Shown here: piece after piece, positions 21,764-22,668 of the stretch
How positions within the stretch are numbered: the stretch's first letter is position 1
How the letters are laid out: the number at the start of each line of letters is the position of its first letter
Source: Clostridia bacterium
GTDB lineage: Bacteria; Bacillota; Clostridia; TANB77; CAG-508
Reading direction: 5' to 3'
NCBI GenBank assembly: GCA_022791325.1
Contig: JAAVYV010000019.1
Coordinates: forward strand, 640 to 64,639
DNA: 64,000 nucleotides
The notes under the pieces: generated by a model
What the model saw: only the letters and a program-made list of their open reading frames with translations
The model's database searches: none
Told to the model about the DNA's origin: nothing
Made by a program: the position numbers and the translations under genes

Positions 21764-21867
21764 CTAAAATATTTATAGAGTAATACTAAAAATTCATATA
21801 ATTAATGAAAACTACTTTATAATTTGAATATAAAAAATTTAGAAAGTTTGAAAATTCTACGAAATCA

Positions 21868-21897
21868 TTGACAAAATGAATAAAAAAATAGTATAAT
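21868..21897 (+). promoter_or_regulatory. Sigma-A-type promoter (TTGACA-18-TATAAT) for ToxIN-like cassette 1
   Basis: Perfect -35 TTGACA (21868-21873) and -10 TATAAT (21892-21897). Nearly identical in sequence to the promoter of cassette 2. Confidence 0.6.
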
Positions 21898-21934
21898 AAA
21901 TATACTAAAAGAAGTAATATTGCAAAATATTATG

Positions 21935-22030
21935 AAGAGGAAACCCCTAGCCTAATGCTTGAAAATAGTATTAAAGTAGGGTATATTTAAAGAGGAAACC
22001 CCTAGCCTATAAGTAGGGTAAAAAAGTAAG
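21935..22030 (+). ncRNA. Putative type III antitoxin RNA (ToxI-like repeats) of cassette 1
   Basis: Two direct repeats starting AGAGGAAACCCCTAGCCTA (54 nt and about 36 nt). Located between the promoter and a terminator hairpin, directly upstream of the toxN-like gene. Confidence 0.5.
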
Positions 22031-22063
22031 AGTGAGGGCTTTAAAAAGAGGCTCTCACTTTGT
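22030..22063 (+). terminator. Hairpin terminator between antitoxin repeats and toxN-1
   Basis: AGTGAGGGC-loop-GCTCTCACT followed by TTTG. This is the canonical type III TA arrangement. Confidence 0.55.
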
Positions 22064-22084
22064 AATATTTTAGAGGAGTAATTA

Positions 22085-22576
22085 ATGAACAATTTAAGAT
22101 TATATAAAATTGATATTGAGTATATCAAATATTTATATTTTTTTGACAATAGAATACAATATAATCCAAATCAGCCAGATGAATATACTAAGAAAAGACC
22201 ATATTTAGGTATTGTATTACAAGTAGATAACTTTGACTATTTTGTACCATTAGAGCATCCAAGATTAAGTCATCAAAAAATGAAAAATAATATATATATT
22301 TTAAAAATACATAACGGAAAATATGGAATATTAGGATTTAATAATATGATACCAGTAAGTAAAGAAGCACTTATTGATTTTGATATAAATAGAGAAAATC
22401 CATCATATAAACAAATATTAATAAGTCAATATCGTTTTTGTAATAAACATATTTATGAAATACAAGAAAGAGCAAAGACAACATATGAAAAAAGTCAAGC
22501 AAATGGATTCTTTAAGAAAGTATGTTGTAATTTTAAATTATTAGAAGAACAGTGTAAAAAATATAAAAATAGTTAA
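22085..22576 (+). CDS. toxN: Type III toxin-antitoxin system toxin, ToxN/AbiQ family endoribonuclease
   Basis: 163 aa. MNNLRLYKIDIEYIKYL...KKRPYLGIVLQVDNFDYFVPLEHPR matches the ToxN/AbiQ N-terminal signature. Confidence 0.8.
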   Translation: MNNLRLYKIDIEYIKYLYFFDNRIQYNPNQPDEYTKKRPYLGIVLQVDNFDYFVPLEHPRLSHQKMKNNIYILKIHNGKYGILGFNNMIPVSKEALIDFDINRENPSYKQILISQYRFCNKHIYEIQERAKTTYEKSQANGFFKKVCCNFKLLEEQCKKYKNS

Positions 22577-22668
22577 CTACTTTTTAATTTGTTATAAAAA
22601 ATTAAAATCTGATATAATTCATTCAATAGAAATGTTACAAAAATATAATAATCTAAGGGAGAGAAAAT

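Follow-up and report, generated by a model that had tools for sequence, protein, structure and literature searches.

A probable ToxIN-family type III toxin–antitoxin cassette with antitoxin units of two lengths in an uncultured gut clostridium

Type III toxin–antitoxin systems are, to our knowledge, the only type in which an RNA directly inhibits a protein toxin. Structural models of these systems are based on few systems with identical repeats. The antitoxin RNA of the ToxIN locus of Bacillus thuringiensis pAW63, ToxI_Bt, comprises 2.9 repeats of 34 nt with one consensus length, and the corresponding toxin, ToxN_Bt, cuts at an A-rich site (A^AAAA). The ToxIN loci of Pectobacterium atrosepticum (ToxIN_Pa) and Escherichia coli, with 5.5 repeats of 36 nt, and the AbiQ/antiQ locus of Lactococcus lactis, with 2.8 repeats of 35 nt, also have homogeneous arrays. 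In this study we analyzed a cassette of ~710 bp in a stretch of 64,000 nt from contig JAAVYV010000019.1 of a Clostridia bacterium (assembly GCA_022791325.1), in the following called the window. We regard this cassette, with a probability of roughly 80%, as an intact ToxIN-family type III toxin–antitoxin module of the abortive-infection type. The kind of system is known; the form found here is a variant not described in the searchable literature. In contrast to ToxI_Bt, the two antitoxin units of the window differ by an 18-nt hairpin, and its toxin carries a Glu-His-Pro-Arg (EHPR) motif in the active site.

The toxN product matched the Pfam profile ToxN_toxin (PF13958) with E=1.5e-43 over profile positions 1-159 of 159 and the PADLOC profile AbiQ with 1.2e-39, which bears out the ToxN/AbiQ-family assignment of the original prediction. 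The closest solved homologue was ToxN_Bt (PDB 4ATO; E=4.6e-19, ~30% identity), and ToxN_Pa (2XD0), ToxN of E. coli (ToxN_Ec, 7D8O) and AbiQ (4GLK) were also found by sequence. An AlphaFold model built with 34 homologues reached a predicted local distance difference test score (pLDDT) of 90.5. Its template modelling scores (TM-scores) were 0.82 for 4ATO, 0.78 for 4GLK, 0.73 for 2XD0 and 0.73-0.74 for the P. atrosepticum and E. coli systems (2XDD, 7D8O). Since profile match, solved homologues and predicted fold agree, the ToxN identity is considered confirmed. Sequence identity is only ~22% to the P. atrosepticum and E. coli toxins and ~24% to AbiQ, which is placed in the same Pfam and PADLOC family and shares with the window locus the Firmicute origin and a short array. 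The window protein does not group with the cptIN and tenpIN families, as it has no sequence match to CptN of Eubacterium rectale (4RMO) and a TM-score of 0.63 at 15% identity.

The order of promoter, repeats, terminator and toxin gene (Table 1) agrees with the published criteria for toxIN loci, in which -35 and -10 boxes upstream of the repeats are preferred but not strictly demanded (Blower et al. 2012, PMC3401426). The B. thuringiensis locus has the same order, and its array likewise holds less than three units. All parts of the ToxIN-like cassette named in the original prediction were in place. Its promoter matches the consensus throughout and is retained in orthologous cassettes, and the terminator hairpin (22029-22061; 14 bp, loop of 5, with a T-rich tail) is present in both the minimum-free-energy and the centroid fold. 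We regard the cassette as a genuine and probably functional ToxIN-family type III system.

The antitoxin region contains an exact 20-nt repeat, AAGAGGAAACCCCTAGCCTA, at 21935 and 21990 and a second exact block of 10 nt, AAGTAGGGTA, at 21974 and 22011. These define the two direct repeats that had been predicted, arranged head-to-tail. The earlier remark that their lengths (54 and 36 nt) are non-canonical was correct in substance, the measured values being 55 and ~38 nt. The lengths are unequal because an 18-nt hairpin is inserted in the variable loop of the long unit. Near-identical copies of one length, a usual property of such arrays although not a formal criterion, are therefore not seen in the window. 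Both units share the core (A/G)AAG-AGG-AAAC-CCCUA-G-CCU-A[insert]AAG-UAGGG-tail. In unit 1, stem 1 pairs AGG (21938-40) with CCU (21951-53) and stem 2 pairs CCCUA (21945-49) with UAGGG (21977-81). The extra hairpin, formed by AAUGCU (21954-59) and AGUAUU (21967-72) around the loop UGAAAAU, sits in loop 1b-2b. The same core without the hairpin is found in unit 2 (AGG 21993-95 with CCU 22006-08; CCCUA 22000-04 with UAGGG 22014-18). In the template published for ToxI, stem 1 has 3-4 bp, loop 1a-2a 3-4 nt and loop 2a-1b 1-2 nt, loop 1b-2b is variable, and a G often precedes stem 2b (Blower et al. 2012). The window units fit this H-type pseudoknot, with AAAC as loop 1a-2a, G as loop 2a-1b and a G before stem 2b, a plan shared with the P. 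atrosepticum and E. coli antitoxins. When the window transcript is folded, the structure of minimum free energy contains the inserted hairpin nested within stem 2 (z=-3.5).

For a comparative analysis 52 loci with ToxN relatives were fetched from species-representative genomes, all of uncultured gut Firmicutes, and in each case 260-300 nt ahead of toxN were read. They follow a common plan of promoter, 5' hairpin, 2-4 units and terminator. One of them (L001) belongs to the species of the window, an uncultured, metagenome-assembled member of the Clostridiaceae, with 99.2% identity. From 47 of the loci 105 distinct units were aligned and base pairs were counted against the pseudoknot structure. 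Stem 2 was paired in 94.7% of the cells and showed compensatory changes at all five pairs, CCCUA/UAGGG being replaced for example by UCCAA/UUGGA, CCACA/UGUGG or CUCUA/UAGAG. The inserted hairpin showed compensatory changes at 6/6 pairs across the long units. Stem 1 was paired in 94.6% of the cells; its GG/CC pairs never vary, and the sole double change, from AU to UA, occurred in 5 units. None of 500 shuffles reached the observed covariation, and sliding the 3' partners by 1-3 columns lowered the pairing from 91% to 35-59%. The pseudoknot proposed as a check of the repeat RNA thus fits the ToxI template, and covariation backs stem 2 and the inserted hairpin. Direct repeats beside a promoter might also be operator sites acting at the DNA level, or chance repeats, and their bare presence at this place would suit such a reading. 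It is extremely improbable in view of the compensatory changes that maintain two helices and an inserted hairpin across the distinct units, of the position downstream of the promoter and upstream of the terminator, and of the match to the ToxI template.

Unit boundaries are conserved as well. A junction motif Y-R-A-A-G-A-G-G was found at 49 distinct internal junctions, with GAGG invariant and both A's present in 46 of them; it also sets the window locus apart from ToxIN of B. thuringiensis. AAGAG precedes the terminator stem in 24/37 loci including the window (22028-22032). These conserved junctions would look like a ToxN processing site at each unit boundary, the exact cut being placed by inference. 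The 5' leader hairpin was more stable than shuffles (p<=0.05) in 25/31 distinct leaders, although the stem sequences are unrelated. RNAalifold, applied to 23 leader sequences, gave no consensus fold from a poor alignment, and per-sequence folding against shuffles was used instead. An open reading frame (ORF) of 7 codons (ATG at 21933) that overlaps unit 1 was rejected, its ATG being missing from many orthologous arrays.

Array architecture was assigned by the length of the short (S) and long (L) units in those 32 EHPR-clade loci that have an intact toxN. Mixed arrays were present in 24 of these 32 loci. Eight had the order S-L-S, eight S-L-L' with a second long unit bearing a different hairpin, seven, the window among them, L-S, and one S-S-L-S. 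Four loci had long units only and four short units only. Arrays mixing hairpin-bearing and hairpin-free units were not found in the searchable literature, and published surveys give one consensus repeat per locus. The only published ToxI noted to have a hairpin in loop 1b-2b is that of Clostridium sp. HGF2 (entry 70 in Blower et al. 2012), where 12 nt form a hairpin in the same loop as in the window. In contrast to the conserved order of both forms seen here, it is described by a consensus repeat with all units alike. The more distant Erysipelotrichaceae relatives (L046-L050; 27% ToxN identity, TSAK motif) have no array; ~100 nt upstream of toxN an apparent single pseudoknot-like unit, CGG..CCUAC.CCG..GUAGG, follows a leader hairpin.

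The regular placement of the long unit raises the question whether both unit types act as antitoxin. Only one type might do so, with the long unit contributing to precursor stability or serving as scaffold, decoy or sensor. The long unit is distinct and position-specific in the 24 mixed arrays, its hairpin is kept through covariation, and no single-unit array accompanies an intact toxN, all of which would be compatible with such a division of labor. On the other hand, the long and short units of the window share identical pseudoknot cores (20 + 10 nt exact), both types are flanked by the junction motif, and long-only arrays occur with intact toxN (L026, L028, L013, L015). We therefore rate a single true antitoxin as quite unlikely.

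The catalytic site of ToxN_Ec and ToxN_Pa consists of Lys33, Thr52, Ser53 and Lys55 (PMC8860590). In the window protein these residues align to R38, E57, H58 and R60, and the canonical set is thus absent. The change from Lys to Arg is conservative, that from Thr-Ser to Glu-His is not. The motif E57-H58-P59-R60, which stands in place of the catalytic Thr-Ser-Pro-Lys of ToxN, is encoded at 22253-22264 of the window. L-E-H-P-R is invariant in the 34-sequence alignment and in those of the loci L001-L037 whose toxN ORF reaches the motif. More distant relatives have FSPK, THPK or TSAK at this place, ToxN_Bt has TSRN and AbiQ LSYK. The sequences of the RNA-unit junctions also differ among the EHPR, FSPK, THPK and TSAK groups. 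This group-wise difference alongside the change of motif hints at different ToxN cleavage specificities.

Loss of the canonical Thr-Ser pair could also be taken as a sign that the cassette is a decaying remnant, with two units left from an ancestral S-L-S array, poor neutralisation or an already inactive ToxN. The nearest relatives (L002, L003, L007 and L034; ~75% ToxN identity) carry S-L-S, and the junction between leader and unit 1 in the window looks as if the first short unit had been cleanly lost. In addition, a strain with ~96% DNA identity (L045) lacks a further unit and most of toxN. In this strain unit 1 was lost by recombination between the identical 20-nt blocks, and through a 1.6-kb deletion the ABC-F gene has become fused, at its 3' end, to codon 35 of toxN. 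The segment concerned (2880-3480 in L045, 21955-24725 in the window) shows stepwise decay that includes a further 570-bp deletion removing a 119-aa ORF. Across the family, the three loci with single-unit arrays (L045, L051, L052) have toxN ORFs of just 60, 34 and 37 aa, and in 39 of 44 multi-unit loci the toxN ORF reaches at least 150 aa (Fisher test against the single-unit loci, ~0.004).

Several observations on the window locus itself argue against decay. Its toxN ORF is not truncated and encodes each of the 32 residues that are invariant in the clade, and every stem pair is retained in both units. No differences were seen among 9 independent assemblies of the species in the 321 nt that separate the NT5C-like gene from toxN. 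L-S arrays with intact toxN exist in other lineages (L004-6, L008, L012, L020), and published toxIN loci reach as few as 1.9 repeats. Finally, the invariance of EHPR in the 32 intact loci argues for selection rather than decay. Altogether we consider a decaying remnant very improbable.

A number of points nevertheless weigh against an intact and active ToxIN module. The window array has two units in comparison to three in the nearest relatives, and a partial loss of function is possible. Stem 1 is consistent with the alignment but weakly tested by covariation, because it comprises 3 bp with invariant GG/CC and covaries in the A-U pair alone; this A-U pair is unpaired in 11 units. Rfam searches of the region yielded chance-level matches alone and no ToxI, even at E<=10. 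Over the whole 64-kb window (1-64000) no Rfam family reached its gathering score on either strand. The activity of the window ToxN is assumed by analogy, because Thr52 and Ser53 of the characterised toxins became Glu57 and His58. A phage or defence-island context pointing to an anti-phage role was not found nearby.

By analogy with the described ToxIN systems the cassette would work as follows. The promoter, presumably strong and constitutive, would drive one transcript comprising the leader hairpin, both units, a leaky terminator and toxN. Each unit would fold as a ToxI-type H-pseudoknot of AGG/CCU and CCCUA/UAGGG with loops of 4 and 1 nt, unit 1 bearing the additional 18-nt hairpin in the variable loop between stems 1b and 2b. 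ToxN would cut the precursor at its three copies of Y-R-A-A-G-A-G-G, which follow the leader, separate the two units and precede the terminator, respectively. The freed pseudoknots would then bind ToxN and hold it in a closed, inactive protein–RNA complex, the stoichiometry of which we infer from the characterised systems. If transcription of the locus stopped, for example upon phage infection, the RNA would decay and free ToxN would cleave cellular and phage RNA. A more far-reaching proposal is that two non-equivalent pseudoknots co-assemble with ToxN into a heteromer, in which the hairpin unit adds an RNA–RNA contact, stability control or a phage-sensing handle. Together with a Glu-His-Arg active site of its own specificity near YRAAG/AGG, this would constitute a distinct ToxIN subtype missed by repeat-finder screens. 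We put this forward tentatively, as a possibility that has the odds somewhat against it.

The biological role of the system may also be a different one. The same mechanism could stabilise a variable chromosomal segment, as an addiction or selfish module, instead of mediating abortive infection. The surrounding stretch of accessory genes varies between strains, as does the presence of a second type III cassette 2.2 kb downstream, and no phage or defence genes are located in the vicinity. Furthermore, ToxIN_Bt promotes plasmid retention according to the title of PMC4615649. The characterised ToxIN_Pa and AbiQ, however, are abortive-infection systems. The two roles are not mutually exclusive and cannot be separated by sequence alone. 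We consider segment stabilisation in place of abortive infection unlikely, though less so than the alternatives weighed above.

The unequal units also affect the detection of such loci. Tandem Repeats Finder, the tool of published type III screens (PMC3401426), did not report the array of the window cassette at a minimum score of 30, because its units differ by 18 nt. The neighboring CptIN repeats were detected at a score of 138. As the usual rule, a tandem-repeat finder applied upstream of a ToxN homologue, fails at this locus, surveys may undercount such systems.

The cassette had also been predicted to be a discrete acquired module bounded by imperfect direct repeats of ~30 bp. The flanking repeat (short form AACTACTTTWTAATTTG...ATAAAAAATT) is real, with identity in 27 of 30 columns and one gap. 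In a gapped local alignment it scores 20. Dinucleotide shuffling of the flanks attained this value in 6 of 5000 trials, and among 416 control pairs taken from the window at equal spacing none did so, the highest value being 14; the repeat is therefore not regarded as a chance match. An earlier ungapped test had been marginal (23/1000 shuffles, p ~0.02-0.06) and was superseded by the gapped one. In 7/12 comparisons between species, similarity at DNA level sets in with the first base of the -35 box (21868). It ends at or up to ~40 nt before the toxN stop in 10/12 and 33-45 nt past it in two. The flanking genes differ between genomes and the 3' flanks are unrelated. Since a unit of ~710 bp from promoter to stop is conserved amid different gene neighborhoods, the idea of a discrete module is supported.

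The search for an empty site was negative. In the same species 10/10 assemblies encoding the identical NT5C-like neighbor carry the cassette, and in metagenomes relatives of this neighbor at 63-85% identity without synteny revealed no unoccupied site. Plasmid and phage collections contained no ToxN with more than 42% identity and thus provide no link to a known mobile element. The 17-mer core of the flanking repeat was not found beside any other cassette. Significant flank repeats of their own are present in L004/L006 and L024 alone and most loci have none, so that flanking repeats are not a general feature of these cassettes. In L004 and L006 the final codons of toxN recur as a 17-nt copy (GCAAAAGCAAATGTGAA) 45-62 nt upstream of the -35 box. 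The copy is exact in L004 (p=0.003) and has one mismatch in L006 (p=0.015), in the same geometry as the flanking repeat of the window, and it may be a relic of tandem cassettes. As an empty site did not turn up and the repeat is not family-wide, two origins are possible in the window. The repeat may derive from a target duplication or att-like recombination at insertion, or it may be what remains of the 3' end of a sister cassette that was once present upstream.

Table 1. Positions of the elements of the ToxIN-family cassette in the window
Feature	Position	Strand	Remarks
Flanking direct repeat, upstream copy AACTACTTTATAATTTGAATATAAAAAATT	21810..21839	+	28 nt before -35 box
Promoter, sigma-70-type, TTGACA-18-TATAAT	21868..21897	+	12/12 consensus positions
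5' leader hairpin GUAAUAUU-GCAA-AAUAUUAU	21914..21933	+	directly precedes unit 1
Antitoxin unit 1, long, 55 nt	21935..21989	+	exact repeats, covariation, fold, published ToxI template
Antitoxin unit 2, short, ~38 nt	21990..22027	+	exact repeats, covariation
Third copy of AAGAG junction motif	22028..22032	+	predicted processing site releasing unit 2; overlaps start of terminator stem
Intrinsic-terminator-like hairpin and T-rich tail	22029..22071	+	between antitoxin and toxin
Ribosome-binding site GAGGAG	22073..22078	+	6 nt upstream of ATG; read from sequence
toxN, 163 aa, ToxN/AbiQ-family endoribonuclease	22085..22576	+	profile, structure matches, model
Flanking direct repeat, downstream copy	22575..22603	+	starts inside toxN stop codon; overlaps promoter-like site

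The neighborhood consists of small accessory genes encoding a helix-turn-helix regulator, GNAT, pentapeptide, NUDIX, NT5C-like, ABC-F and DUF2975 proteins, and no phage or plasmid genes were seen in it. A promoter-like site at 22589-22618 lies ahead of the ABC-F gene. This gene (22669-24159) encodes an ABC-F type protein of 496 aa that has two ABC domains and lacks a membrane domain. Several strains (L053, L057, L059) carry it split in two, as ORFs of 81 and 417 aa.

The second cassette, located 2.2 kb downstream at 24751-25484, belongs to the CptIN family. It comprises a promoter with 12/12 consensus positions (24751-24780), 2.2 tandem repeats of 48 nt (24820-24924), a hairpin and a gene for a 162-aa CptN, which matched PDB 4RMO with E=1.3e-17 and had no match in Pfam or PADLOC. 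This cassette is polymorphic between strains, being missing in L058 and L060 and carrying an internal 136-bp deletion in L057. It is flanked by a direct repeat of 90 nt with 84% identity (24597-24686 and 25523-25612), which represents the 3' end and terminator of the 119-aa ORF located upstream. Strains lacking the second cassette have another 3' allele of this ORF, and this allele ends in the second repeat copy. From the content of the flanking repeat and the alternative allele, the cassette seems to have arrived with a piece of the gene of the 119-aa ORF. The promoters of both cassettes and of the DUF2975 gene (21866-21900, 24743-24780 and 25629-25660) share an extended similarity (AAAGTATTGACA; TTGACAnAATGAATAAAA...TATAATAAATA). 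Scaffold L059 appears to be mis-joined at this repeated promoter sequence.

The variant features leave the basic classification of the locus in the ToxIN family unchanged. What goes beyond the known are the clade-wide antitoxin arrays of mixed length, the Glu-His-Pro-Arg motif, and the failure of the repeat-finder criterion at such loci. The invariant motif at the catalytic position suggests that these toxins, within the common ToxN fold, differ in their catalytic chemistry or in specificity. In a large clade of gut Clostridia, arrays of two or three dissimilar pseudoknot units are maintained in fixed order. Such mixed arrays raise the questions of how the protein–RNA complex is assembled, whether it contains mixed RNA subunits, and which role the extra hairpin plays.

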